DNA of 64,000 nt from Candidatus Omnitrophota bacterium (lineage in GTDB: Bacteria > Omnitrophota > Omnitrophia > Omnitrophales > Aquincolibacteriaceae), in contig PLLJ01000039.1 in NCBI GenBank assembly GCA_003140935.1, forward strand, positions 76,007-140,006, given 5' to 3'. The position numbers were made by a program, and so were the translations under genes. The notes beneath the pieces were generated by a model. The model did not search any database. It saw nothing but the letters and a program-made list of their open reading frames with translations, and was not told the origin of the DNA. Positions 4,631 through 62,167 of the stretch are shown in pieces; within the stretch, counting starts at the first letter, position 1; every line of letters starts with the position of its first letter.

Positions 4631-5083
4631 TTAATATTGCAAGGGACTCGGGACTCGTTCCTCGGGGCCCGTTTTCTTAAAAGAGCTTTTTCGATCCGCA
4701 ATAGCAGACCGAATTTTTTCCAGAAGCTTTCTGATCATTCTGGATTCATGATCGAGTTTTTCCAGGATCTTTTTAGCACCATCCTGGGTTATCAGCTGTA
4801 ACGGCGTAGCTATCTCGAGTTGCGTTTCGAGTTCGCCACAAGACCCTAGAGCAATGAATAAAAATCTCTTGTAGTCGCTCGAGTATTTTCTATTGAATCC
4901 TTCTGCGATATTGCAAGGAATCGAAACGGCAGCGCGACGCATCTGATCTGCCAGGCCAAACCTCTCTTCCTGAGGGAATGATTTGGTAAGACGGTAAATG
5001 TCCACAACCAAATCTTTCCCCATTTTCCATATAAGCAAATCCCTGAAACTTGAAATAGTCTTTACCTTGCCCTCTTCCGCCAT
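4631..5083 (-). CDS. Four-helix-bundle protein (23S rRNA IVS protein family, TIGR02436-like)
   Basis: Family-typical motifs (FPQEERFGLADQMRRAAVSIPCNIAEG, GSCGELETQL). The C-terminal tail reads through a GGGACTCG repeat, so the true stop is uncertain. Confidence 0.5.
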   Translation of the reverse strand: MAEEGKVKTISSFRDLLIWKMGKDLVVDIYRLTKSFPQEERFGLADQMRRAAVSIPCNIAEGFNRKYSSDYKRFLFIALGSCGELETQLEIATPLQLITQDGAKKILEKLDHESRMIRKLLEKIRSAIADRKSSFKKTGPEERVPSPLQY

Positions 5084-6803: not shown

Positions 6804-7140
6804 AGGGAAACCTCCATTATTCATAATTATCATATAATATATTCATATTATTCAAATAAGTCAATACCTTGTTTCATTTTTTACATCACCCCTCAGAAAA
6901 CCTCACTGTAGAGGAGCGGGATGCCGTTCATCCCCTCAGGAAAAACTTTTATCAATAGCATAAGTGCCACATAAGAGCTTAAGATAACCATTTTAAAAGC
7001 TCAGAGGTGGCAACTTAAGCCTTTGACAATAACTATTTTCGAACGCGTCTTCTCGTATAAGGTTTGCCTCTAAAGCAACAGATTGCGGCCGATGGTATCT
7101 AGTCAGGTTCACATTGTGCGGGCTGGGCTTTTTTGATATA

Positions 7141-7222
7141 GTCCCCATACTGTCCAATTTCAGAGAAGCGGAAATTGGGGCAATCCAAACTACCATTTAT
7201 ATAAAAAAAATAGAAGTTTGGA
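7141..7222 (+). repeat. Structured intergenic repeat family A, copy 1 (two-hairpin element)
   Basis: gtcccNatacNgtccaatttc...gaaattggggcaatcc plus second stem tccaaact/agtttgga. Homologous to 19588-19672 and 54052-54133. Confidence 0.6.
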
Positions 7223-7314
7223 CCGTGCCGCACGCTATCCCGACTTTAAGTCTCTTTAAATCGAGCTCGTCGGGACCGCCCCGCTTTCACTAAAAACGGA
7301 AAGGCATTGGAATT

Positions 7315-8409
7315 ATGGGTTTCAAATGCGGGATCGTCGGTCTGCCGAACGTAGGCAAATCCACCATTTTCAACGCGATCGCCAAGGCACACGCCGCGGC
7401 GTCGAATTATCCTTTCTGTACGATCGAGCCGAATGTGGGCATGGTGCCGGTGCCCGACTCGCGTCTGTGGGAACTGAGCAAACTTTATAATCCTAAAAAG
7501 ACCACGCCCACCACCGTGGAGTTTTATGACATCGCGGGACTTGTCGCCGGCGCTTCCAAAGGAGAAGGTCTTGGCAATCAATTTCTCGGGCACATCAAGG
7601 AAGTTGAGGCCATTCTTCACGTGGTCCGCTGCTTTGAGGATCCCAACATCGTTCACGTTTCAGGCGCGATCGATCCTGCGCGCGATATCGACGTGATCGA
7701 TACGGAACTGTGCCTTAAAGATCTGGATACCATTAACGCGCGCTACGATAAGACCGAAAAGCTTGCCAAGAGCGGTGAAAAGGAATCCAAGGAAAGGATG
7801 CCGGTCTATGAAAAAGTGAAGAAGGCGCTCGAGGACGGTACGCCGCTTCGCAATATCGGTCTTACGGAAGAAGAAAAAAAGCTTGTGAAGGATATGGCGT
7901 TCCTGACGCTCAAGACCGTGCTTTATTGCGCGAATGTGGCGGAAAAGGACCTTCCCGGCGGCGGTCCTTTCGTCGATCTTTTGCGCAAGCGCGCGGCCAG
8001 GGAAGGCGCCGAGGTCGTCGTCATCTCAGGAAAGGTAGAGTCCGAACTGATCGATCTTTCGGAAGAGGACCAAAAGATCTTCTTAAAAGACCTGGGCCTT
8101 GAAGAGCCGGGACTTAACTCGCTTATCCGGACCGGTTATAAGGCGCTTCAGCTCATTACCTATTTCACGGCCGGAGAAAAGGAAGTCCGCGCCTGGACCG
8201 TTCGCAACGGCTCCAAAGCGCCGCAGGCCGCGGGCGTGATCCACTCGGATTTCGAGAGGGGATTCATCCGTGCCGAGGTCATGCGTTATGAGGATCTCAT
8301 CAAATACGGTTCCCAGCTGGCCGTTAAAGAAAAAGGACTTCTTCGCGTCGAGGGAAAGGAATACGAAACCCAGGACGGCGATGTGATGCTTTTTCGATTT
8401 AGCGTCTGA
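7315..8409 (+). CDS. ychF: Ribosome-binding ATPase YchF (Obg-family GTPase)
   Basis: G1 GLPNVGKST, TGS domain, full-length conservation. Confidence 0.9.
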   Translation: MGFKCGIVGLPNVGKSTIFNAIAKAHAAASNYPFCTIEPNVGMVPVPDSRLWELSKLYNPKKTTPTTVEFYDIAGLVAGASKGEGLGNQFLGHIKEVEAILHVVRCFEDPNIVHVSGAIDPARDIDVIDTELCLKDLDTINARYDKTEKLAKSGEKESKERMPVYEKVKKALEDGTPLRNIGLTEEEKKLVKDMAFLTLKTVLYCANVAEKDLPGGGPFVDLLRKRAAREGAEVVVISGKVESELIDLSEEDQKIFLKDLGLEEPGLNSLIRTGYKALQLITYFTAGEKEVRAWTVRNGSKAPQAAGVIHSDFERGFIRAEVMRYEDLIKYGSQLAVKEKGLLRVEGKEYETQDGDVMLFRFSV

Positions 8410-11863: not shown

Positions 11864-12304
11864 ATGAAAAAACATTTCTCTTTTCTTTTAGCTCTTCTGA
11901 TGATCTTCGCGTCTTTGTCTCCATCAGCCTTTGCGATGGGAGTCAAACAATTCGGAGCATCCTTGCTTTTGCCGACCACGGGTCAAGCCATGAACGGTGA
12001 GATCGGAGCCACCAAGACCAAGATCATGGCGGGCGTTGAAGTGGCCGCCGTGACCACGACGATCCTGCTGGCCACGCTGACCAGCGGCGGTCTTTTCTGG
12101 GTGGGGCTTGGGCCGCTTTTGGCCAACCACGCGTGGAGTGCCGCCGACGCTTATAAGACGGCGCGCAGCAACAACACGAACGATCCTTATATCCAACAAC
12201 AACTGACTTCAGCCCAGCGAACTCTGGACGCGTCCCGTCAGAGCCGTTTTGACCGGGAATCCGATATTCGCCAGAGGATCCTGAAAGCCGGCGAGCAGTC
12301 CTGA
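11864..12304 (+). CDS. Secreted hypothetical protein
   Basis: Signal peptide MKKHFSFLLALLMIFASLSPSAFA. No recognisable domain. Confidence 0.4.
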   Translation: MKKHFSFLLALLMIFASLSPSAFAMGVKQFGASLLLPTTGQAMNGEIGATKTKIMAGVEVAAVTTTILLATLTSGGLFWVGLGPLLANHAWSAADAYKTARSNNTNDPYIQQQLTSAQRTLDASRQSRFDRESDIRQRILKAGEQS

Positions 12305-12542
12305 TCCTCATCTATTAAAATCAAAGGTTGATCAGGACAGTCCAAGTCGCCATAAAGGGAATAAATAAAAGACTTGGACAGAACTAGAAATCGCTCTTTG
12401 ATTTTCTGATCTTGCGAAAGGCCTGATCCTCGCGATCAGGCCTTTTTTTCTATACTGTTCTCCATTTAATTTTATGAGGTAACAGTATGGTGCCGCATCC
12501 CCTTAATTTTAAATGTCATGCGGCGCCAACCCTAAGGAATTC

Positions 12543-19536: not shown

Positions 19537-19587
19537 ATAAAATACGGACTCTTTTGGTGAACTAGTCTTTTGGGAAGAAGCATTCTA

Positions 19588-19672
19588 GTCCCAATACCTA
19601 TCAATTTCAACGGAGTTGAAATTGGGGCAATCCTTGTCAACCATTTGGGAAAAGAATAAAAGACAAGGATAG
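19588..19672 (+). repeat. Structured intergenic repeat family A, copy 2
   Basis: gtcccaatacctatcaatttcaacggagttgaaattggggcaatcc plus stem atccttgtc/gacaaggat. Confidence 0.6.
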
Positions 19673-19736
19673 CCGAAGGCGATGGGGACCGCAATGTTCT
19701 CATAGGAAACAAGAACCCTGAACAGCGAGGCCTATT

Positions 19737-20873: not shown

Positions 20874-20955
20874 CGCACTGAATTACCAATAAATTTTACA
20901 GTTATTCAGTGCAGCACTGGCTTCCAATAAAGATTTATGGGAAAGCCAGGCGAGG
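20874..20955 (+). repeat. Structured intergenic repeat family B, copy 1
   Basis: Hairpin gcactgaat/attcagtgc followed by the conserved core gcagcactggcttccaataaagattt. Confidence 0.6.
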
Positions 20956-25684: not shown

Positions 25685-25768
25685 CGCACTGGACCTCCCG
25701 ATAAAAATAAAAGGTTGTCGAGTGCTGCACTGGCTTCCAATAGAAATTTCAATGAGAGCCAAGCGAGT
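25685..25768 (+). repeat. Structured intergenic repeat family B, copy 2
   Basis: Hairpin gcactggac/gtcgagtgc plus core gctgcactggcttccaatagaaatttcaatgagagccaagcgag. Confidence 0.6.
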
Positions 25769-39023: not shown

Positions 39024-39109
39024 CTCTCATTGAATTTTTATTGAAAACCAGTGCAGCACTCGACAACTTTTTCATTTTTTTATTGGAAGTCCAGTGCGGT
39101 GAACGATGA
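39024..39109 (-). repeat. Structured intergenic repeat family B, copy 3 (inverted orientation)
   Basis: Reverse complement matches the 25685-25768 core and hairpin. Confidence 0.55.
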
Positions 39110-46292: not shown

Positions 46293-47189
46293 ATGAAAAA
46301 ATATATTCTGATTCTGGCGGTACTCTTTTTTAGTTCGTGCGCAACGGCTCCCCGCCATCCTCCGGCACCGACCGCTCCGCCGCCGAAGCCTGCGGTGCCG
46401 CACGCGCCGGTCAGTTTGCCGTCGCAGCCGGCCCCGGTCCCTTCGCGCCGGGACGTGACGCATGTCGTGGCTCCCGGGGAAACGGTCGCGATGCTCAGCC
46501 AAATGTACGATGTGCCGGCCGGTTCTATCGTGTCCGCCAATCATTTAAAAAAGAGCGCGGCGCTCTCCTCAGGGCGGTCCTTGATTATCCCCCAGGCGTC
46601 CGCAGCCCGGTCGATCATCCCGCTTTTCCCGAATAAAAAATGGAAATATATCATCGTTCACCATAGCGCCACCCAGGAAGGGGACTCTCTCGCGTTCAAC
46701 CAGTATCATTTGAAAAGAGGGTTCGTCGGGGGCGTCGGTTATGACTTCGTGATCGACAACGGGACGCTCAGCAAGGTGGACGGACAGATCGAAGCGACCC
46801 CGCGATGGCTTAAACAGCAGGAGGGCCGGCATTGTAAGGCGTCCCATATGAACCAGAAGGCGATCGGGGTGTGCCTCGTGGGTAATTTTAACCAGGGAAA
46901 GATGACCGAGCACCAGATGGAGGCGCTCGTTTATCTGGTGGAGATCCTCTGCCGTTATTACAAGATCCCCGAAAAACATATCCTGGGACACGGCAAAGTC
47001 CCGGAGGCGGACACCGATTGCCCGGGGAAGGCTTTTCCCTGGCAGGAATTCCATAACCGTCTCAAGTCGACCGACGTAAGCGGGATGCCCCACGGAACCG
47101 GAAGCACGGAACCACTCATAAAACTTAAAGGAAGTTTGGTGCAGTCCCAGCCATCCTTTAAAATGGATGGGAGGGTCGGAACGCACTGA
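46293..47189 (+). CDS. Lipoprotein with LysM domain and N-acetylmuramoyl-L-alanine amidase (amidase_2/PGRP) domain
   Basis: Lipobox FSSC. LysM HVVAPGETVAMLSQMYDV. Amidase_2 YIIVHHSAT...GYDFVID. Confidence 0.65.
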   Translation: MKKYILILAVLFFSSCATAPRHPPAPTAPPPKPAVPHAPVSLPSQPAPVPSRRDVTHVVAPGETVAMLSQMYDVPAGSIVSANHLKKSAALSSGRSLIIPQASAARSIIPLFPNKKWKYIIVHHSATQEGDSLAFNQYHLKRGFVGGVGYDFVIDNGTLSKVDGQIEATPRWLKQQEGRHCKASHMNQKAIGVCLVGNFNQGKMTEHQMEALVYLVEILCRYYKIPEKHILGHGKVPEADTDCPGKAFPWQEFHNRLKSTDVSGMPHGTGSTEPLIKLKGSLVQSQPSFKMDGRVGTH

Positions 47190-47359
47190 ACGGCCCATAA
47201 AACTCAAAGGAAGTTTAGTGCAGCCCCAATCAACCCTTAAAATAAATGAGAGGATTGGGGCGCCATCCCGCGCGTAGAAGTCAGCTAAAATAGAACGGCG
47301 CCACTCCACTTTGGCTTCCGGGATGGGCAAAACGAAAAGCAAGTCCGGAGAAAAGAACG

Positions 47360-53829: not shown

Positions 53830-53839
53830 TAAACACTCG

Positions 53840-54200
53840 GGAGCAATCCCAGTGCGAAGAGGCACGCTCGCGAGACGGAGTGGGCAAGGTGGCAGGCAGG
53901 AATCGTCTCTCGACACCGGCTGTTCACTCCCTCCTGCGGGGAGTGCCAGCCTGCGCTCTCGCTGATGGGATCCGTTCCGCGGAACGGCACCAAGCTCCCC
54001 TCAGCTCCGAGAGCTGTCTCGTTACGATTCCTGCCTGGCCGAATGAAGTCGGTCCCAATACCTATCAATTTCCACAGAGTGGAAATTGGGGCCGTCCTCG
54101 TCGCCATTAAAGAAACAAATGAAAGACAAGGACGGGCGCGCGAGTGAAGATCGCCTCGCTGGGGCGAGCTGAACGATGACGAAGCGCATTGGGATTGCTT
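53840..54200 (+). repeat. Repeat family E, copy 1 (about 280-bp element with nested family A copy)
   Basis: Homologous to 61790-62080 (tgggatccg...ggcaccaagctccc...gcgcgagtgaag...tcgctggg...gaaga). Contains the extra 54052-54133 insertion. Confidence 0.55.
54052..54133 (+). repeat. Structured intergenic repeat family A, copy 3 (nested in family E)
   Basis: gtcccaatacctatcaatttccacagagtggaaattggggccgtcc plus stem gtcctcgtc/gacaaggac. Confidence 0.6.
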
Positions 54201-54256
54201 CCTAAAATGTGCGAGAATGTTTTCTTTCGATAAGTTTTGAACATAAAGGAGTTGAA

Positions 54257-54435: not shown

Positions 54436-55146
54436 ATGAAAAGGGCAAAGCGCGTTTGGGCCGTCGTGGCGGCAGGTTTTTTTCTTCTCGCCGGCATTTC
54501 CCAGCGCTCTCTGGCGGCAGCGGAGGGTGTTCCCCGGCTGCCCAGGTTTTATTTGAACGGCCAGCCCGCGACCTTGACGATCCAGGACTTGTCGGGTTTT
54601 GGGACCCGGCCTTTGCGACTCTTGATCGAAAGGAATAACCGGAAGCGTCGCGAGGAGCTCATCCAGGTCTATGCCCTCGGAGCGCACGAAGGGGACGACC
54701 TGGGGATCGAACTGGCGGCGCCGCTCCCGGGGATGCGCGTGACGCTTTACAAGATCCTGCAGGAGCCGGGCGGTTCCCGCTATTTGAGTATGCCCTCCTC
54801 CGTTTATTTTGATAAGCCCGGCCAGACCCTTTACCGGGAAAACACCGGACTTTTCCGGGAGGCCTTTTTCATTATCGTTTACGAGAAGACCGATTCGCCC
54901 GATGAAAAAGAGATCAATGTCCGTTACTTTGAGGAACGGGTGAGAAAGCTCTCGGTCGCGGCGAAGACCAATTTCCTGTTCTCCTCCCTGAAATTAAAAA
55001 TGAAGGATTTTGCGGACCTGAAGGCCGGGGAATTCTTCGAAAGGGACGCGCAGCTCCTGGTCGACCGGCTCATCGATCCCCGCCGTATCTTTCTGGTCCG
55101 GATCTGGAAAGCCGCCAAGCCCGCAGCGGAGACGAAGAAAACATAA
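54436..55146 (+). CDS. Secreted hypothetical protein
   Basis: Signal peptide MKRAKRVWAVVAAGFFLLAGISQRSLAAAEG. Confidence 0.4.
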   Translation: MKRAKRVWAVVAAGFFLLAGISQRSLAAAEGVPRLPRFYLNGQPATLTIQDLSGFGTRPLRLLIERNNRKRREELIQVYALGAHEGDDLGIELAAPLPGMRVTLYKILQEPGGSRYLSMPSSVYFDKPGQTLYRENTGLFREAFFIIVYEKTDSPDEKEINVRYFEERVRKLSVAAKTNFLFSSLKLKMKDFADLKAGEFFERDAQLLVDRLIDPRRIFLVRIWKAAKPAAETKKT

Positions 55147-55263
55147 TTCGGAGCCTCATAAAACTTCCTCCGTGAGAGGGAACTTTTGTGGCAGAATACA
55201 GATCATACAGTGCCTTTTACTTTGGGATGTAAGAATGGCCCCAAGCCTGAAAGGGATCGATTG

Positions 55264-56346
55264 ATGGCATGGAAGCTGGATTTGAACCGGTATTGCGAAA
55301 GGCATCGTTTTCCCGTAGGGGTCTTGGGGGGAGCGTACATTTTGGGTATCGCTTTCCTCGATTACGCGACGGGCACCGAAGTTTCACTTACCGTTTTTTA
55401 CCTTCCGGCCATTGCTCTTTTTTCCTGGTATTACAGCAGGCCCTACGGAATTTCCGCAGCGATCCTCAGCACCCTCTTATGGTTTTACGGGGATTTTTTG
55501 GGCGGGCGTTGGTCCGCCCATCCCGCGATCGCCTACTGGGACGGGAGCGCGCTCCTGGGTTTTTTTCTGGCCTTTTCCATGACCCTTCAGAACCTGCGGT
55601 TAAGATTCAAAAAACAACAAGAACTCATGATCACGACACAAAGGGTAAGCGCTGAAATTCAAAAGATCGCGGATATGCAATCCCAGTTTGTCAGCACGGT
55701 TTCCCATGAGCTGAAGAATCCTCTGGGGGTGATCCGGGAATCCATGAGCCTGATCCTTGATAAACTCGCGGGGGAAGTCAGCGGCGAGCAAAGAAAGATC
55801 CTCGAGATGGGGAAAAATAGCGCGGAGCGGCTGATACGGTTAGTCGGCGATCTTTTGGACCTTTCAAAAATAGAGGCCGGCAAGATGAAATTGCGGCCGG
55901 AAGATATGGACCTTGGGATCTTAGTGACGGACGTATTAAAGATCTATGCGAATGAGATCTCAAAAAAACGGATCGTGCTTCAAAAAGAGATCCCGCCCAA
56001 CATCGGATTGCTGTGGGGGGATCGTGATGCATTGATCCGGGTGGTCATCAACCTTGTCAATAATGCCATCAAATACACGCCGGAAGGGGGTTGCATTACG
56101 ATCAAGCTCACGGGAAGCGCAAGGGAGGTCCGTTGTGAGATCGCCGATACGGGGCCGGGCATCCCCAAGGAATCTTTTGCGAAGCTCTTTAATAAATTTG
56201 AACGGGTGATGGTTGAAAGACAAGAAGGGACCGGATTAGGCCTTGCGATCAGTAAGGATATTATCGAACTTCATAAAGGAAAGATCTGGGTGGAGAGCGA
56301 AGCTGGAAAAGGAAGCAAATTCGTTTTCATTTTACCCCGATCTTAG
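55264..56346 (+). CDS. Membrane sensor histidine kinase
   Basis: TM helices, H-box VSHELKNPL, N/G boxes (NLVNNAIKYT, GTGLGLAI). Confidence 0.65.
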   Translation: MAWKLDLNRYCERHRFPVGVLGGAYILGIAFLDYATGTEVSLTVFYLPAIALFSWYYSRPYGISAAILSTLLWFYGDFLGGRWSAHPAIAYWDGSALLGFFLAFSMTLQNLRLRFKKQQELMITTQRVSAEIQKIADMQSQFVSTVSHELKNPLGVIRESMSLILDKLAGEVSGEQRKILEMGKNSAERLIRLVGDLLDLSKIEAGKMKLRPEDMDLGILVTDVLKIYANEISKKRIVLQKEIPPNIGLLWGDRDALIRVVINLVNNAIKYTPEGGCITIKLTGSAREVRCEIADTGPGIPKESFAKLFNKFERVMVERQEGTGLGLAISKDIIELHKGKIWVESEAGKGSKFVFILPRS

Positions 56347-56549
56347 AAGAAAATGTTCCATCTGAAGTAGCTCAAAGCGATCCGCCGCCAAGCCCGCAGC
56401 GGAGATGAAGAAAACGTAATCTAGAATTCATCCCGCCGTAATGTCACATAGGCTACGCTTCCATCAGAAGTGAAGATCGACGCTGAAATCATTTTGATCG
56501 GAAGCGGACGGTCGAGGATGGAAAATCATTTCACCAAAGGAGAAACACG

Positions 56550-56726
56550 ATGAAAAAGCTAGCGCTGGTTGCGGTGATGTTGTTGGTCGCGGGAACTGCC
56601 GTTTATGCCGCGATGCCTGCCAAGAAGGTCGAATGCAACGTGAACGGGAAGACGAAGCTCGTCAAGACCGTTGATGCCTGCAAAGCCTTAGGCGGCACGG
56701 TGGTTGAAGCGAAGAAAGTTTCATAA
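56550..56726 (+). CDS. Small secreted protein (58 aa)
   Basis: AAAGGAG SD and signal peptide. Followed by a strong terminator. Confidence 0.4.
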   Translation: MKKLALVAVMLLVAGTAVYAAMPAKKVECNVNGKTKLVKTVDACKALGGTVVEAKKVS

Positions 56727-56765
56727 AAAAACCCGAGATTTTTTCGGGGAGTGTGTCGACGGAAA

Positions 56766-56801
56766 GGGAGCTGCCTTGAAAAGGGCAGCTCCCTTTTTTT
56801 G
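56766..56801 (+). terminator. Rho-independent terminator
   Basis: gggagctgcc-ttgaaaa-gggcagctccc followed by ttttttt. Confidence 0.75.
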
Positions 56802-56945
56802 TGCGCGCGGGTCCCGGGCCGGCGGCGGACCCTGCCACCCGTTTCCGCGGATAATTTTTTGTCTTTATTTTAAGGTTTAGTGATAAGATTTTGCGTTCGA
56901 TGGTAGGGTCCGATCGTCCGAAGTTCTCTGCTCTGAGAGGTATCC

Positions 56946-57626
56946 ATGCGTATTCTTTTGGCCGAAGATGACAGCCGTGTTGCCAGTTTTGTGCGCCGCG
57001 GTTTGCGCGAAGAACAGTATGCCGTGGATGTGGCCACGGACGGTGAAAAAGCGTTTCTTATGGCCCAAACCGGGGAATACAGCCTCATCATTCTGGACCT
57101 CATGCTCCCTAAAAAGGACGGGATGGAGGTGCTGCGGACGCTTCGCGCTTCCAAGTGCGGCACCCCGGTCCTGATCCTGACCGCGAAAGACAAACCCAAA
57201 GATAAAGTGGAAGGGTTGAACGCGGGCGCGGACGATTATCTGACCAAGCCTTTTGGCTTCGAGGAACTCCTGGCACGCGTGCGCGCGCTCTTGAGGCGCG
57301 GCGGGAACATGGCCCCGACCGTCCTTGCCGCGGGAGATCTTCAAATGGACACGCTGAAACACAAGGTGCGGCGCGGCGGCAAAGAGATCGATCTCACGAA
57401 CCGGGAATACGCCCTTATGGAATTCTTCCTGCGCCATCCGAACGAAGTGGTCACGCGCACCACGCTTTCCGAGCAGGTGTGGGAGGCTGATTTTGACACG
57501 TTCTCCAATGTCATCGATGTGCACATCGCGCGGCTGCGGCAAAAGATCAACGATGGTTTTTCATCGAAACTTTTGCAGACCGTGCGCGGCAGGGGCTACA
57601 TCCTCCAGATCTCCGAGATCGAATGA
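56946..57626 (+). CDS. OmpR-family response regulator (CusR/CopR-like)
   Basis: Receiver domain plus winged-helix. ILLAEDD, LDLMLP. Confidence 0.8.
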   Translation: MRILLAEDDSRVASFVRRGLREEQYAVDVATDGEKAFLMAQTGEYSLIILDLMLPKKDGMEVLRTLRASKCGTPVLILTAKDKPKDKVEGLNAGADDYLTKPFGFEELLARVRALLRRGGNMAPTVLAAGDLQMDTLKHKVRRGGKEIDLTNREYALMEFFLRHPNEVVTRTTLSEQVWEADFDTFSNVIDVHIARLRQKINDGFSSKLLQTVRGRGYILQISEIE

Positions 57627-59101
57627 TCCGCTCCGTCCGGTTCTCTTTGACCCTTTGGTATGCCGCGATCCTGATCGTGATCCTTTCCCTGTTCGGGGGA
57701 GTGCTTTACACGAATATGCGGTCCAACCTCGCACGGGATGTCGACCGGTTGTTGGCCTCCGAAGCGGACGGGGTCAGTGATGCCATTGCCTCTTTCGGAA
57801 AAGCCGAGATCGAGGCTAAAAATCCGCGCATCTCTTCCCAGGAAAAACTCACGGAGATCTTTCTGGGAAATGCCGCCCGCGGCGAGATCCCGGCGCTTGT
57901 CAGGCGATGGGCCGAAGTGACGGCTGAACTGGATACCGTGCGTCCGGTTCGTATTATTTCTCAAACGGGCGAAACGCTGGCTTTTTCTTCCAGCCTTTCG
58001 AATTGGTCGATCCCTGTTAATGCCCAGGCGCTCCGTCATGCGAGCGGGGGAAAGACGTCTTACGAGACTTACAGCGTCGCGTCCGGCCACCGGGTACGGA
58101 TCGTGACGTATCCCATTCTTGAAAAGGGACGCCTCCTTTATTTTGTGCAAGTCGTGACCTCCCTTCTCGAGACAGACGCCTCCCTGGATCGTTTGAGGAG
58201 CTGGCTGCTTTGGCTGATCCCGATGACGGCGATCCTGGCCAGTCTGGTGGGGTGGTTTTTGGCAAGTCTGGCGCTTCGTCCCGTGGGAAGGATGATCCAC
58301 GAAGCCCGGCAGATGAGCGAATCGCGGCTTCACCGGCGCATCGCCGTGCCAAAGACCGGGGATGAACTCCAAAAATTGGGCCAAACCTTCAACGAAATGA
58401 TCGACCGTTTCGAACGGGGTTTCAAAAGGCTGCGTCAGTTCAGCGCTGCGGCTTCCCATGAGCTTCGCACCCCGCTCACCGTGATGAAAGGGGAAATGGA
58501 ACTGGTCTTGCGCAAATCACGGACCGAGGAAGAATATGAAAGGGTGCTCCGGAACCAGCTCCGGGTGGTCGATGACATGGCGCGCGTCGTGGAACAGCTC
58601 TTGGCGGTGGCGCACGCGGAGGACGGGGAATTGGCCGTCCAGTGGGAGGTGCTGGAGTTGGAGACGCTCATCCGTTCCGTCGCGCAAAGCTTGGGTCTGA
58701 TCGCAAACGATAAAAAGATCTCGCTTCAGATCCATGCGGAAAGAAACGTCCGGATCCAGGGGGAGCGGAGGCTCTTGGAACGTCTGATCGCCAATCTCCT
58801 TGAGAACGCGATCAAACACACGCCGGCGGGGGGTCAGGTGACGCTGGAGGCGGTCCGGCGCGGGGAACAGTCCCTTTTGATCGTACGGGATACCGGGAAG
58901 GGGATCTCCGCGGAAGACAGGCCGAAAATATTCAATAAGTTTTTCAGCCCGCAACAATCCTCCGAAGGCGTTCCTTCCACGGGGATCGGGCTCGGGCTTT
59001 GCCGATGGATCGCGGAAGTCCACCGGGGAAAGATCGAGGTCACGAGCCTTCCGGGTCAGGGCGCGGAATTCACCGTCTCTTTTCCTTTCGCGGGGTCTTG
59101 A
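57623..59101 (+). CDS. Sensor histidine kinase (CusS/BaeS-like, HAMP)
   Basis: ATGA overlap with the regulator gene. Two TM helices, HAMP, H-box AASHELRTPLT, ATPase boxes. Confidence 0.75.
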   Translation: MIRSVRFSLTLWYAAILIVILSLFGGVLYTNMRSNLARDVDRLLASEADGVSDAIASFGKAEIEAKNPRISSQEKLTEIFLGNAARGEIPALVRRWAEVTAELDTVRPVRIISQTGETLAFSSSLSNWSIPVNAQALRHASGGKTSYETYSVASGHRVRIVTYPILEKGRLLYFVQVVTSLLETDASLDRLRSWLLWLIPMTAILASLVGWFLASLALRPVGRMIHEARQMSESRLHRRIAVPKTGDELQKLGQTFNEMIDRFERGFKRLRQFSAAASHELRTPLTVMKGEMELVLRKSRTEEEYERVLRNQLRVVDDMARVVEQLLAVAHAEDGELAVQWEVLELETLIRSVAQSLGLIANDKKISLQIHAERNVRIQGERRLLERLIANLLENAIKHTPAGGQVTLEAVRRGEQSLLIVRDTGKGISAEDRPKIFNKFFSPQQSSEGVPSTGIGLGLCRWIAEVHRGKIEVTSLPGQGAEFTVSFPFAGS

Positions 59102-59229
59102 AGGCTCCGGACTTATTTCAACAGTTTCAAACATCCTTCCATTGCGGTACAATACGCGGCGAAAAAATAAAGTAGGGGAGCGTTCTTAATTTCATCATTC
59201 ACCGGGATCATCCGGGAAGACGTTTTTAT

Positions 59230-61785
59230 ATGCCGAACTCTCAAAATCAAAAAAATCAGAAGCCCGTCGCTTTCTTCAGCGCGGCGCTTGTCGAAGATCT
59301 CCTGAAAGAATTCATGACCTCGTGGGGGGGTCTTTCGAAGGACGAGGCCGCTTTACGGCTTGAAAGGCACGGCTACAATGAGCCGGCCAAAAGGAAAAAA
59401 AGGGCCGCGTTGTGGCAGCTCCTCCAAAAATTCTGGGATCCGCTCATCCTCGTTCTGATCGTTATCTGCCTCTTTTCGCTTTTTTTCGGAGAAAAGATCC
59501 AGGCCCTGCTCGTGCTTTTCATGATCTTCCTGAGCGTCGGCCTTTCTTTTACCCAGGAATACCGTTCCCACAAAGCGGCCGAAAAACTGAACGAGCTTGT
59601 GCGCGCCACCGCCACCGTCTTCCGGGACGGAGCCGAGGTCGAGGTCCGGATGCGCGAGATCGTCCCGGGCGACATCGTGAACCTTTTCGCGGGCGACATG
59701 ATCCCCGCCGATCTCCGGATCCTTTCCTGCAAAGACCTTTTTATCAACCAGTCGTCGCTGACGGGGGAATCCTTTCCCATCGAAAAGAGCGCGGCGTCCG
59801 CCAAGACAGAAGGGGTCGCGGTCACAAGCCTCGGGAATATCGCATTCATGGGTTCCAGCGTCGTCAGCGGTACGGCGCTCGGGCTTGTCATCAAGACGGG
59901 GATCGAAACGCAATTCGGAGAGATCTCCAAGCGTCTTGCCACCATCCGTACGATGACGAGTTTTGACAAAGGGATCCAGAAATTCGTATGGCTCATGATC
60001 CGGATCATGGTCCTTTTGGTGGTCGTTATTTTCGCGATTAATTTTTTCACCAAAGGGGACATCATTCAGGCCCTTCTCTTCTCGCTCGCGGTCGCGGTCG
60101 GTCTGACCCCGGAAATGCTTCCGATGCTCGTGACGGTGAATCTGTCCAAGGGCGCGATCGCGATGTCCCAGAAGAAAGTGATCGTGAAACGCCTGAACTC
60201 GATCCAGAACCTGGGCGCCATGGACGTGATCTGCACCGACAAGACCGGGACGCTCACGCTGGATGATGTCGTGCTCGAACGGCACTGCGACGTGGTCCGC
60301 AATGAGAACGAAGAGGTCCTGAAATACGCTTTCATGAACAGTTTTTACCAGACGGGTCTGAAGAACCTGCTGGACCGCGCGATCCTGAAGCATGAACTTG
60401 CGCTCACCGAGCAATACACCAAGGCCGATGAGATCCCGTTCGATTTTTCACGCAGGATCATGTCGGTGATCGTGGAGGCCCATGACAAACAAACGCTTAT
60501 TTCCAAAGGCGCGCCGGAGGAGATCTTCAAGCGTTGCAGTCATTACGAGCTCGAAGGCGAAATTCTGGAGATGGAAAATCTGATCCTTTCGGACCTCAAG
60601 GAAGAGTACGACAGTTTGAGCGCCGACGGTTTCCGGGTCCTGGCGGTGGCTTATAAGAACATGCCCGAGAAAAAAAGCGTTTACAGCAGGGACGATGAAA
60701 AGGACCTGGTCTTGATCGGCTACCTCGCGTTCCTCGATCCGCCGAAACCCAGCGCCAAGGAGACGATCCGCCGCCTCAAAAAACTCGGCATCGAATTCAA
60801 AGTGCTGACCGGCGACAACGAGCTGGTGACCAAAAAGATCTGCAGCCATGTCGGGCTGGATGTTCACGAGATGGTCACGGGCGACAAACTGGAGACCTTA
60901 AGCGATTCCGCCCTCAAAGAACTTGTGCAAAAAACCACCGTTTTCGCGCGGCTTTCACCGATCCAAAAAGAACGCGTGATCCATGCTTTGCACGAGAACG
61001 GTCATGTGGTGGGCTATTTGGGGGACGGGATCAACGATGCCCCCGCGCTCAAAACCTCGGATGTCGGCATCTCCGTCAATAACGCGGTCGATATTGCCAA
61101 GGAATCCGCGGATATCATCCTCCTCGAGAAAAGCCTCCTGGTCCTGGAAGACGGTGTCCTGGAAGGGCGCAAGACTTTCGGGAATATCATGAAATACATC
61201 AAGATGGGGTCCAGCTCCAATTTCGGGAATATGATCAGCATGACCGGGGCGAGCCTGTTCCTGCCGTTCCTTCCGATGCTTCCGATCCAGATCCTGCTCA
61301 ACAACTTTCTCTATGACGTTTCGCAGGTCGCGATCCCCACCGATAAAGTGGACAGCGACTATCTGCTCAAGCCGAAAGGCTGGGACATCGCGTCCATCCG
61401 GCGGTTCATGCTGATCTTCGGTCCCATCAGTTCCTTTTTTGATTTCCTGACCTTCGGCCTCCTGCTTTTTGTTTTCAAGGCCGCGCCGGCGCAGTTCCAG
61501 ACGGGCTGGTTCCTGGAATCGCTCTGCACTCAGACCTTTATCATCCATGTCATTCGCACGGCCAAGGTCCCTTTCGTTGAGAGCCGTCCGAGCTCCTTCT
61601 TGGTGGGGATGTCTGTTTTTATCGTCGCGGTGGCTTTTGCGATCACTCTGACGCCCTTCGGAAAACTGTTCGGGTTCATTCCTCCGACCTGGAGTTACGG
61701 TCTGACGCTCTTCCTGATCGTCCTCTGTTATCTCGCCCTCACCCAAAAGATCAAATCCTGGTACGTTAAAAAGTACGGCTACTGA
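59230..61785 (+). CDS. mgtA: Magnesium-transporting P-type ATPase
   Basis: ICTDKTGTLT phosphorylation site, GDGINDAPAL and MgtA-like length and topology. Confidence 0.85.
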   Translation: MPNSQNQKNQKPVAFFSAALVEDLLKEFMTSWGGLSKDEAALRLERHGYNEPAKRKKRAALWQLLQKFWDPLILVLIVICLFSLFFGEKIQALLVLFMIFLSVGLSFTQEYRSHKAAEKLNELVRATATVFRDGAEVEVRMREIVPGDIVNLFAGDMIPADLRILSCKDLFINQSSLTGESFPIEKSAASAKTEGVAVTSLGNIAFMGSSVVSGTALGLVIKTGIETQFGEISKRLATIRTMTSFDKGIQKFVWLMIRIMVLLVVVIFAINFFTKGDIIQALLFSLAVAVGLTPEMLPMLVTVNLSKGAIAMSQKKVIVKRLNSIQNLGAMDVICTDKTGTLTLDDVVLERHCDVVRNENEEVLKYAFMNSFYQTGLKNLLDRAILKHELALTEQYTKADEIPFDFSRRIMSVIVEAHDKQTLISKGAPEEIFKRCSHYELEGEILEMENLILSDLKEEYDSLSADGFRVLAVAYKNMPEKKSVYSRDDEKDLVLIGYLAFLDPPKPSAKETIRRLKKLGIEFKVLTGDNELVTKKICSHVGLDVHEMVTGDKLETLSDSALKELVQKTTVFARLSPIQKERVIHALHENGHVVGYLGDGINDAPALKTSDVGISVNNAVDIAKESADIILLEKSLLVLEDGVLEGRKTFGNIMKYIKMGSSSNFGNMISMTGASLFLPFLPMLPIQILLNNFLYDVSQVAIPTDKVDSDYLLKPKGWDIASIRRFMLIFGPISSFFDFLTFGLLLFVFKAAPAQFQTGWFLESLCTQTFIIHVIRTAKVPFVESRPSSFLVGMSVFIVAVAFAITLTPFGKLFGFIPPTWSYGLTLFLIVLCYLALTQKIKSWYVKKYGY

Positions 61786-61789
61786 TCGC

Positions 61790-62080
61790 GCGCAGAAATT
61801 TCCAAGGATCCTGAAGCGCGCTCCGAGGGTCGAGCGGGCATGGTGGCGAGCAGGACCGGGCGTCGTCACCCGCGGTTCGTTTCTTCCAGCGAGAAACGAC
61901 CGCTTGCGGCTCTCGCCCTTGGGATCCGCCCCCAAGGGGGCGGCACCAAGCTCCCAAGGGCTCCGAACGCTGCCTCCGTCCCAGTCCTGCTCGCCGAGCG
62001 AGACCAGAGGCGCGAGTGAAGTTTTTTCTCGCTGGGAAAAAACGAGCGGCGAAGAAGGATCCTGGGAAATTTCTGTGGGG
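61790..62080 (+). repeat. Repeat family E, copy 2
   Basis: Shares about 280 bp of interrupted homology with 53840-54200, with compensatory hairpin changes (ccgccccc/gggggcgg versus ccgttcc/ggaacgg). Confidence 0.55.
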
Positions 62081-62167
62081 CGGATTTGCAAAACAGCAGT
62101 TTCCGTTTTTCGTTAGGTGAGTATAATACGTCATTCGTTCACCAGTCGATTAACGTAGGAATTTTAT

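Follow-up and report, generated by a model that had tools for sequence, protein, structure and literature searches.

Several kinds of short, structured repeat have been described in the intergenic DNA of bacteria. The REP/BIME (REPIN) sequences of Enterobacteria and Pseudomonas, which are associated with RAYT, are short, non-coding extragenic hairpins of high copy number that form direct, inverted and tandem mosaics, lie near stop codons and promoters, and persist over long vertical descent; individual REPs are 20-40 nt long, with small loops, a conserved stem and a 5' GTAG. In E. coli, REP/BIMEs bind gyrase and IHF. Elements of the IS200/IS605 group and their ORF-less derivatives (PATEs) have subterminal hairpins near each end, similar to one another, and no terminal inverted repeats, and they insert 3' of a short site, which is similar to the 3' end of the element and can pair with an internal guide, of 4-5 nt, at a hairpin foot. 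In IS608 the third base of the cleavage site is left unpaired, and a guide A flips into the transposase (PMC3201880). Streptococcus, Neisseria and enterobacteria have the BOX, RUP and Correia/ERIC repeats, intergenic and structured, which are made up of a variable number of modules, are co-transcribed with their neighbours, and are mobilised by an enzyme that acts in trans or is not known. In integron attC sites structure is conserved above sequence, and the DNA is believed to form its hairpins when single-stranded.

In a 64-kb stretch of Candidatus Omnitrophota DNA (the window) we have found copies of an ~85-base two-hairpin repeat, here called family A, which is previously undescribed in the databases and literature searched. 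Like REP/BIMEs, family A is a short imperfect palindrome that lies outside genes in many copies; it too is non-coding, forms direct, inverted and tandem mosaics, occurs beside stop codons and promoters and has persisted through long vertical descent. It differs from them in that each module is ~42 nt long with a 22-nt loop, in that its foot is GTCC/GGAC (in general GTCC/GGRC) and carries no conserved GTAG, and in that the stems vary with compensation, 27 different inner stems being present among 106 parsed copies, whereas the 22-23-nt loop and a 10-nt bulge are conserved. This inverts the usual REP pattern: the stems vary, and the loops, the bulge and a 3-nt complementarity between flank and guide are fixed. 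Like IS200/IS605 elements and PATEs, family A has a hairpin near each end and lacks terminal inverted repeats, but its motifs, which prolong the stems directly, are 3 nt long, a single internal CxR does duty for both ends, its hairpins do not resemble each other, and no strand bias was seen within loci. Neither a RAYT nor a TnpA gene was found when ~0.9 Mb, consisting of the window and the loci around copies, was searched by tblastn with IS200 and IS608 TnpA queries, which is a weak negative. Family A is likewise modular, with modules in variable number, but shares no sequence similarity with BOX, RUP, Correia or ERIC repeats, and it is without the clear terminal inverted repeats and the target duplications (TA or similar) of Correia and RUP. 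With attC sites it has in common that structure is conserved above sequence and that its hairpins are presumed to fold in single strands. The AAC/GTT-like inner triplets of one copy (copy 2) resemble the RYYYAAC...GTTRRRY boxes of integron attC, but these triplets vary freely elsewhere, and family A is without R and L boxes, cassette array or integrase context and is dispersed beside housekeeping genes. By its behaviour, family A is best read as belonging with the REP/BIME/PATE kind and not with small RNA genes.

Omnitrophota is an uncultured phylum with no described repeat or RNA family in Rfam or in the literature searched, a full-text search on Omnitrophota or Omnitrophica repeats or motifs having returned nothing relevant. 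Family A is a compact and easily recognised marker of one clade, and it forms a noticeable part of the intergenic DNA of that clade, where it rearranges promoter and 5'-UTR regions, as at ychF. Genome annotation should mask its copies as repeats, so that they are not taken for sRNA genes or candidate riboswitches.

Copies in the window

The first-pass annotation of the window had reported three copies on the + strand with two hairpins and particular stem variants. All three are present and have the hairpins and stems described; a degenerate inverted copy and a composite of two modules had been missed. The features discussed below are as follows (bit scores are those of covariance model R1).

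7139-7225, + strand: family A copy 1, 79.6 bits, flank trinucleotides included; TAG 7139-7141, hairpin 1 7141-7181, x1 = A 7182, hairpin 2 7183-7223, 3' CCG 7223-7225
7227-7317, - strand: degenerate inverted family A copy, 29.1 bits, E-value 1.6e-5 (filters off)
12296-12381, + strand: composite of two hairpin-2-type modules, hairpin 1 absent, 44.5 bits (filters off)
19586-19672, + strand: family A copy 2, 95.0 bits, flank trinucleotides included; TAG 19586-19588, hairpin 1 19588-19628, x1 = A 19629, hairpin 2 19630-19670, 3' TAG 19670-19672
53839-54215, + strand: family E copy 1 (E1), host of copy 3 and not itself family A, placed by alignment
54050-54135, + strand: family A copy 3, 89.9 bits, within family E copy 1; CGG 54050-54052, hairpin 1 54052-54092, x1 = C 54093, hairpin 2 54094-54133, 3' CGG 54133-54135
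61797-62077, + strand: family E copy 2 (E2), the empty site for the copy 3 insertion, placed by alignment

Copies 1-3 can be aligned over ~87 nt, are grouped as family D12 by the repeat finder run on the window, and are recovered by model R1 (118-copy build) at E-values between 1e-18 and 1e-22. All three contain the exact core CAATTTC-N9-GAAATTGGGGC, for which shuffles give a chance expectation of 0.16 matches, and RNA folding predicted both hairpins in each copy (z-scores -2.2 to -4.6). Hairpin 1 of copy 1 is built of the outer helix GTCC/GGGC, the bulge CCATACTGTC and the inner helix CAATTTC..GAAATTG. The stem arms of hairpin 2 are ATCCAAACT / AGTTTGGAC in copy 1, ATCCTTGTC / GACAAGGAT in copy 2 and, with one C.A mismatch, GTCCTCGTC / GACAAGGAC in copy 3. 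It had also been remarked that all copies lie 5' of genes on the + strand. For copies 1 and 2 this regularity is uninformative, since the genes on either side of them diverge and a copy would lie 5' of a co-oriented gene whichever way it pointed.

The degenerate copy abuts copy 1 tail-to-tail, and its 5' end overlaps the ychF start codon region. In the composite, CAG bounds each hairpin-2-type module; the first (GTCCTGATC..GATCAGGAC, 12298-12338) has a loop that is the reverse complement of the usual loop, and the second is GTCCAAGTC..GACTTGGAC (12340-12379). With filters off, model R1 found weaker hairpin-2-like modules at other window sites too, and in a simple scan 29 stems of 9 bp with A-rich loops of 17-26 nt were counted in the window, as compared with 4-16 in five shuffles. 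This excess suggests that family A is the best-defined member of a wider set of modules.

Other hairpin modules in the window have 9-bp stems of different sequence (GCAC..GTGC, GCCCC..GGGGC) and similar A-rich loops of 18-24 nt; they lie at 4835-4875, 12450-12490 (-), 20876-20911, 25686-25725, 39056-39097 (-) and 47104-47262, the last holding three such modules in tandem. A short, GGGACTCGGGAC-rich intergenic repeat, family D7 of the repeat finder (window positions 2446, 4643, 20825, 24525, 38488, 39123 and 40439), in places adjoins hairpin modules.

Structure and covariation

The family A unit consists of YxG, GTCC, the 10-nt bulge CAATAC(C/T)TAT, a 10-bp stem with an R-N-A triloop, GGGC, x, RTCC plus 5 bp, an A-rich loop of 22-23 nt, 5 bp plus GGAY, and xG. 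In an alignment of 118 distinct copies (A2) the consensus of the first part is Y x G|TCC - CAATAC(C/T)TAT - CAATTTCNNN - RNA triloop - NNNGAAATTG - GGGC - x, and that of the second part is RTCC NNNNN - (A)CCATT..GAAAAGAA..AAAG - NNNNN GGAY - x - G. In hairpin 1 the outer helix, GTCC/GGGC, is 4 bp long and retains its T.G wobble in 143 of 149 copies; the conserved bulge lies on the 5' side, and the inner helix, of 10 bp, carries a triloop that is R-N-A in 92 and GAA in 39 of the 118 copies. Hairpin 2 has a 9-bp helix and a large A-rich loop of conserved sequence.

The covariation of the stems that had been noticed in three copies holds in all 118. In A2, 95.8% of cells pair, compared with 29-54% when the partners are slid by one to three columns; double changes were seen in 9 of 9 pairs of hairpin 2 and in three pairs of hairpin 1 outside the fixed search pattern, and the covariation score was reached by no shuffle. 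Covariance model R1, which was built from A2, gave 170 matches in 100 loci, including 33 variant-core copies (among the matches listed), and these variant cores extend the compensation in hairpin 1 (CAATCACAGC/GCTGTGATTG, CATCCCGCC/GGCGGGATG and CGATCG../..GATCG). When the divergent copies found with R1 are added, 22 of 23 pairs are compensated in an alignment fitted to the model. RNAalifold, which had been proposed as a check, independently gave a closely similar two-hairpin structure with a short outer helix (CCC/GGG in its register) and the bulge. The compensatory changes across the family thus support the earlier proposal that structure is under selection. G.U pairs outnumber A.C pairs 85:60 overall (p = 0.046) and 49:41 in hairpin 2, a weak asymmetry that fits hairpins able to form in DNA of either strand.

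Several other readings of these sequences were tried and rejected. An alternative helix GTCCCAAT/ATTGGGGC, exclusive with hairpin 1, is at odds with the finding that CCCAAT stays fixed while divergent copies compensate within hairpin 1 (CGAT/ATCG and the two variant-core pairs given above by their arms), and RNAalifold also prefers the outer helix and bulge. An internal sigma-70 promoter in hairpin 2 (TTGTCA-17-TAAAAG) occurs only in the TTGTC stem type, and the stems co-vary as a helix. An extra helix in the hairpin 2 loop (CAUU/AAUG), seen in folds, shifts its register between stem types and is not claimed. Resemblances to IHF sites, parS, attC and CRISPR did not hold on inspection.

Distribution across genomes

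The family reaches well beyond the three copies first reported. In a scan of one genome per GTDB species at least 114 loci were matched, ~104 of them with the full element and from 18 assemblies (among the matches listed). At least 13 of these assemblies, that is every named one among the 18, are Candidatus Omnitrophota/Omnitrophica, and there are many copies per genome, the most sampled in one assembly being at least 23. About 10 matches in other phyla are without the 5' GTCCCAAT and lie in coding sequence; judged from these features they are chance matches. IMG/VR viral contigs contained no family A match. No family of Rfam 15 matched family A: a scan of the window at the gathering threshold returned only a tRNA, an E-value scan of copy 2 only chance-level matches (E above 0.4), and scans of family E and of the 6830-7145 spacer nothing above chance. 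Family A is a genuine family of structured repeats, specific to one clade and without precedent in the databases searched.

Boundaries and target trinucleotide

The dinucleotide that precedes GTCC recurs after GGA in the 106 parsed copies. The outer positions (Y0, R, Ylast) read C,G,C 49 times and T,A,T 43 times; the central positions (x0, x1, x2) are AAA in 51, GCG in 15, TTT in 6, ATT in 6 and CGC in 4; and the last base of the element is G in 97. Among 80 singletons, which are copies without another module before them, the flanking Y is Watson-Crick to the internal R in 75 (shuffle mean 39.5, with 0 of 10,000 shuffles reaching this value) and x0 equals x2 in 64 (shuffle mean 36.5), counts that are inflated by related copies although the effect is large. 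At the central positions of YxG and CxR an unpaired A mostly stands opposite an A, and the central bases agree where they are A or T, whereas a G or C at one position is matched by its complement at the other. This arrangement recalls the pairing of cleavage site and guide in IS608, as an analogy and not as a sign of membership.

The two termini share only TCC/GGA, and 2 nt separate the start of hairpin 1 from the 5' boundary and the end of hairpin 2 from the 3' boundary. GGRC-x-RTCC, the junction, is a near-palindrome, and in tandem arrays, which have a period of 83-85 nt, one YxG is shared between units. Three comparisons of empty and filled sites, at the second and the first site of family E and at the ychF promoter, place the boundary just 3' of YxG, and each time there is a match between the Y of the empty site and the R of the elements inserted there. 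The aligned sequences show insertion immediately 3' of YxG, with the same YxG ending the element, and both copies of YxG complementary at their outer positions to the CxR between the hairpins.

It was suggested in the first-pass annotation that the repeat is a small ncRNA family or a MITE. The MITE is the closer of the two, a discrete ncRNA gene not being supported by the data given below. A classical MITE, mobilised by a DDE transposase and duplicating 3 bp of its target, would leave a 3-nt direct repeat such as the YxG that flanks the unit and is single at empty sites; in these data the 3' YxG fits an element-owned end and a target duplicate alike. Yet a DDE-type MITE has terminal inverted repeats of at least 10 bp and a fixed duplication, whereas here the inverted repeats are only the 3-nt TCC/GGA and the direct repeat co-varies with an internal base. 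Passive duplication would not give the Y-R complementarity of the singletons, and single hairpin modules move alone. We regard a classical MITE as highly improbable.

Family E and the empty site of copy 3

Copy 3 had been placed inside a copy of family E, and this was confirmed: the uninterrupted E2 lacks copy 3 precisely. A comparison of the target site had been advised, and in the alignment with E1 (A4) the part missing from E2 is exactly TCCC...GGAYxG, the junction following CAG; this CAG junction was compared with E1, L004, L041 and L083. The second site is empty in E2 (GAGACCAG|AGGCGCGAG) and filled in L004 (AACCTG[TCCC..GGATTG]AGGCGCGAG), in L041 (GACCGG[TCCC..GGGCGG]AGGCGCGAG) and in the window's E1 (AGTCGG[TCCC..GGACGG]GCGCGCGAG). 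The first site is empty in the window's E1 (CACGCTCG|CGAGAC, with TCG at the junction) and filled in L016 and in the E copies of other species (CACGCTAG[TCCC..GGATAG]AAGGAC). Within family E the family A inserts have a fixed orientation.

Family E is a multi-helix element of ~290 nt that is also carried by L004, L041, L083, L016 and others, and its copies in other species hold one or two family A inserts at the two fixed sites. Its terminal helix of 17-19 bp is wholly different in sequence between copies and always paired, and 20 of 55 predicted pairs are compensated, in a comparison of three sequences only. Family E has the look of another structured element, larger and possibly mobile. In L030 family E copy 1 is missing from the orthologous site. 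In the syntenic contig of this related species (L030:909-1601) the 7.6-kb segment between the two family E copies (54437-62090) is missing and is replaced by ~700 nt with one family A copy and one small gene; this could be a rearrangement via family E or via the repeats.

The ychF promoter

In the window and in L115, whose YchF is 96% identical, family A stands directly after TATAG. Relatives with a YchF 78-87% identical (L117, L118-L120) have the same divergent neighbour and no element, and their ychF intergenic DNA (L117-L120) is 80-185 nt long with TG-n-TATAG|T just before the ATG. When the empty promoter site TATAG|T of L117-L119 was aligned with the window and L115, it was seen that the first T of copy 1 regenerates the TATAGT hexamer. 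With copy 1 lying between this -10 box and the start codon, the element would be transcribed in the ychF leader in the sense direction. Its absence upstream of ychF in the 78-87% relatives argues that it is not a conserved ychF regulator.

The region upstream of ychF measures 482 nt in the window (6834-7317), compared with the 80-185 nt of L117-L120, and the ancestral TG-n-TATAGT element is now 175 nt from the ychF start codon. Besides the family A copies, ~300 nt of this region (6834-7138) are new; they are shared with L115 and have no Rfam match. Two genes upstream of ychF and on the opposite strand lies a 23S_rRNA_IVP gene (4631-5083, -; PF05635, bAvd-like), encoding a four-helix bundle, which is conserved in L115 and in the P0004 contig.

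Relation to genes and transcription

Genes were called with a codon log-odds caller and are approximate. All sampled copies are intergenic, that is, outside confident genes. The 103 copies with two called neighbours lie in 80 co-oriented, 16 divergent and 7 convergent regions, and total intergenic length gives an expectation of 78.6, 14.3 and 10.0, respectively. Of the 80 copies with co-oriented neighbours, 33 have the sense orientation and 47 the antisense one (p = 0.15). The distance from copy to start codon ranges from 0 to over 500 nt, the 5' flank is unconserved beyond 2 nt, no promoter or terminator of family A's own was found, and nothing terminator-like lies 3' of hairpin 2. The variable gene distance, the random 5' flank and the missing terminator make a poor fit to an sRNA gene or a leader element. 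Copies of both orientations occur together in single 8-kb loci, which may speak against a strong bias towards one replication strand. A cis-regulatory RNA or sRNA gene is expected to have a consistent orientation or position, or its own promoter and terminator, and neither was seen. The proposal that family A is a small RNA gene, or a gene-specific regulator such as a 5'-UTR element, is not supported by these data, nor by Rfam.

A functional RNA module carried in mRNAs or in larger RNAs such as family E, which offers its bulge and A-rich loop to a protein or RNA partner and for which dispersal is secondary, is a different matter; it might act on the stability, the processing or the translation of mRNA. 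Roughly half of the copies that lie between co-oriented genes are antisense, however, with variable spacing to the start codon and no conserved promoter or terminator, and hairpin-2 modules also occur inverted, with nearly no G.U asymmetry in hairpin 2. Nor does the lack of the element upstream of ychF in relatives, or of any Rfam match, speak for such a module. It would, on the other hand, account for strong covariation together with conserved unpaired sequence, for the conserved U.G wobble of hairpin 1 and the overall excess of G.U over A.C, for the conservation of orthologous copy 2 above its flanks with a compensatory change (see below), for the probable sense transcription of copy 1 between the ychF -10 box and start codon, and for the fixed orientation and two fixed sites of the inserts in family E. 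We hold this alternative only tentatively and consider it rather unlikely.

Turnover, age and constraint

Turnover of modules was seen between relatives at 80-96% identity. L115 has two direct units upstream of ychF and the window has one unit and an inverted degenerate one; in L092 the site orthologous to the 12296-12381 composite holds two full inverted family A units; L025 and the window (85-89% nucleotide identity) differ by indels made of related hairpin modules; and in L030 family E copy 1 is absent together with its family A insert. These comparisons between close relatives show that hairpin modules are added, lost or inverted at GGRC-x-RTCC junctions. Together with the precise empty sites in E2 and in the ychF promoter of relatives, such gain and loss bears out the earlier claim that the element is, or was, mobile.

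The median pairwise identity of copies within a genome is 0.59-0.66, with 0 to 3 pairs exceeding 95%, and for 119 of 150 copies the nearest relative is in another genome (both among the matches listed). These values point to no recent burst and suggest that most present copies are old and vertically inherited. Copy 2 is found at the orthologous site in three species (window, L025, L087), is better conserved than the flanking intergenic DNA, and in L087 has a compensatory T:A to C:G change, suggesting selection after insertion. With the age of the copies, this orthologous conservation indicates that retention is not simply neutral. As for the REPs of E. coli, secondary roles in RNA, for sense-transcribed copies, or in DNA are plausible, and they form the chief rival to the cassette reading given below.

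Long retention could also mean that the repeats are kept as a host site at the DNA level, bound or extruded as a cruciform by a chromosomal protein with a part in replication, recombination or the organisation of the nucleoid, much as gyrase and IHF bind REP/BIMEs in E. coli. The orientation-independent distribution, the near-palindromic GGRC-x-RTCC junction and the almost equal pairing of hairpin 2 on either strand agree with a host site. For a dimer that binds double-stranded DNA, however, compensation in the centres of the stems would be superfluous; close relatives differ by gains and losses of copies, spacing along contigs showed no regularity, and there is no known candidate protein. In our opinion a host site is quite unlikely.

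Possible mechanism of dispersal

We lean, with modest confidence, towards reading family A as a non-autonomous, modular hairpin DNA cassette, similar to REP/BIME or to an ORF-less IS200/IS605 derivative, that was moved in trans and then retained. A DNA cassette is the best fit to an intergenic distribution in proportion to space, orientation-free placement, precise presence or absence at YxG, the sharing of junctions and the shuffling of modules. A trans-acting enzyme would recognise the folded hairpins in single-stranded or extruded DNA, probably with the help of the conserved bulge CAATAC(C/T)TAT and the A-rich loop, and would cut and join at the hairpin feet, the target being set by 3-nt complementarity or identity. 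The modules moved would be hairpin 1, with feet GTCC...GGGC, and hairpin 2, with feet RTCC...GGAY, with single nucleotides between them. A candidate enzyme is an HUH/Y1-type transposase such as RAYT or TnpA; an alternative candidate is a recombinase acting on the near-palindromic junction GGAY-x-GTCC and needing identity of a 3-nt core, which would explain the same pattern. Old copies that keep their pairing may still be selected for mobilisability or may have acquired local roles, for example in the 5' UTR of ychF.

Some findings count against a DNA cassette. The search for a transposase or recombinase was negative: the 753 neighbouring ORFs clustered into housekeeping families only, with no transposase-like recurrent neighbour, and a Pfam scan of the small window ORFs gave no nuclease and the one 23S_rRNA_IVP gene. 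The absence of a recent burst, the conservation of copy 2 above its flanks, the dissimilarity of the two hairpins and the mixed orientation within loci weigh in the same direction, as does the conserved T.G wobble, a strand-specific feature that would also fit RNA.

By analogy with IS608, the cassette could be part of a guide-programmed system on single-stranded DNA, in which pairing with CxR selects the genomic YxG as well as the site of 3' cleavage in the element itself, the central base is kept unpaired for the enzyme, and single hairpins are cut, inverted and pasted at any GGRC-x-RTCC by an enzyme of Omnitrophota. We consider this specific form unlikely. If true, it would be a minimal relative of IS200/IS605 and RAYT chemistry working on 40-nt units, and it would explain the same modules inside the larger structured family E. 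Should the complementarity rule reflect target choice, family A would be a very small natural case of nucleic-acid-guided DNA insertion.

Other features of the window

Between copy 2 and an isocitrate/isopropylmalate dehydrogenase-like gene (19680-19736) lies CGCAATGTTCTCATAGG, which is invariant in the window, L025 and L087 while the surrounding intergenic DNA has diverged, and which may be a regulatory site of that gene. The AT-rich segment 33034-37302 contains four or five ORFs with poor host-like codon scores, and their translations look like defence-island or foreign genes.
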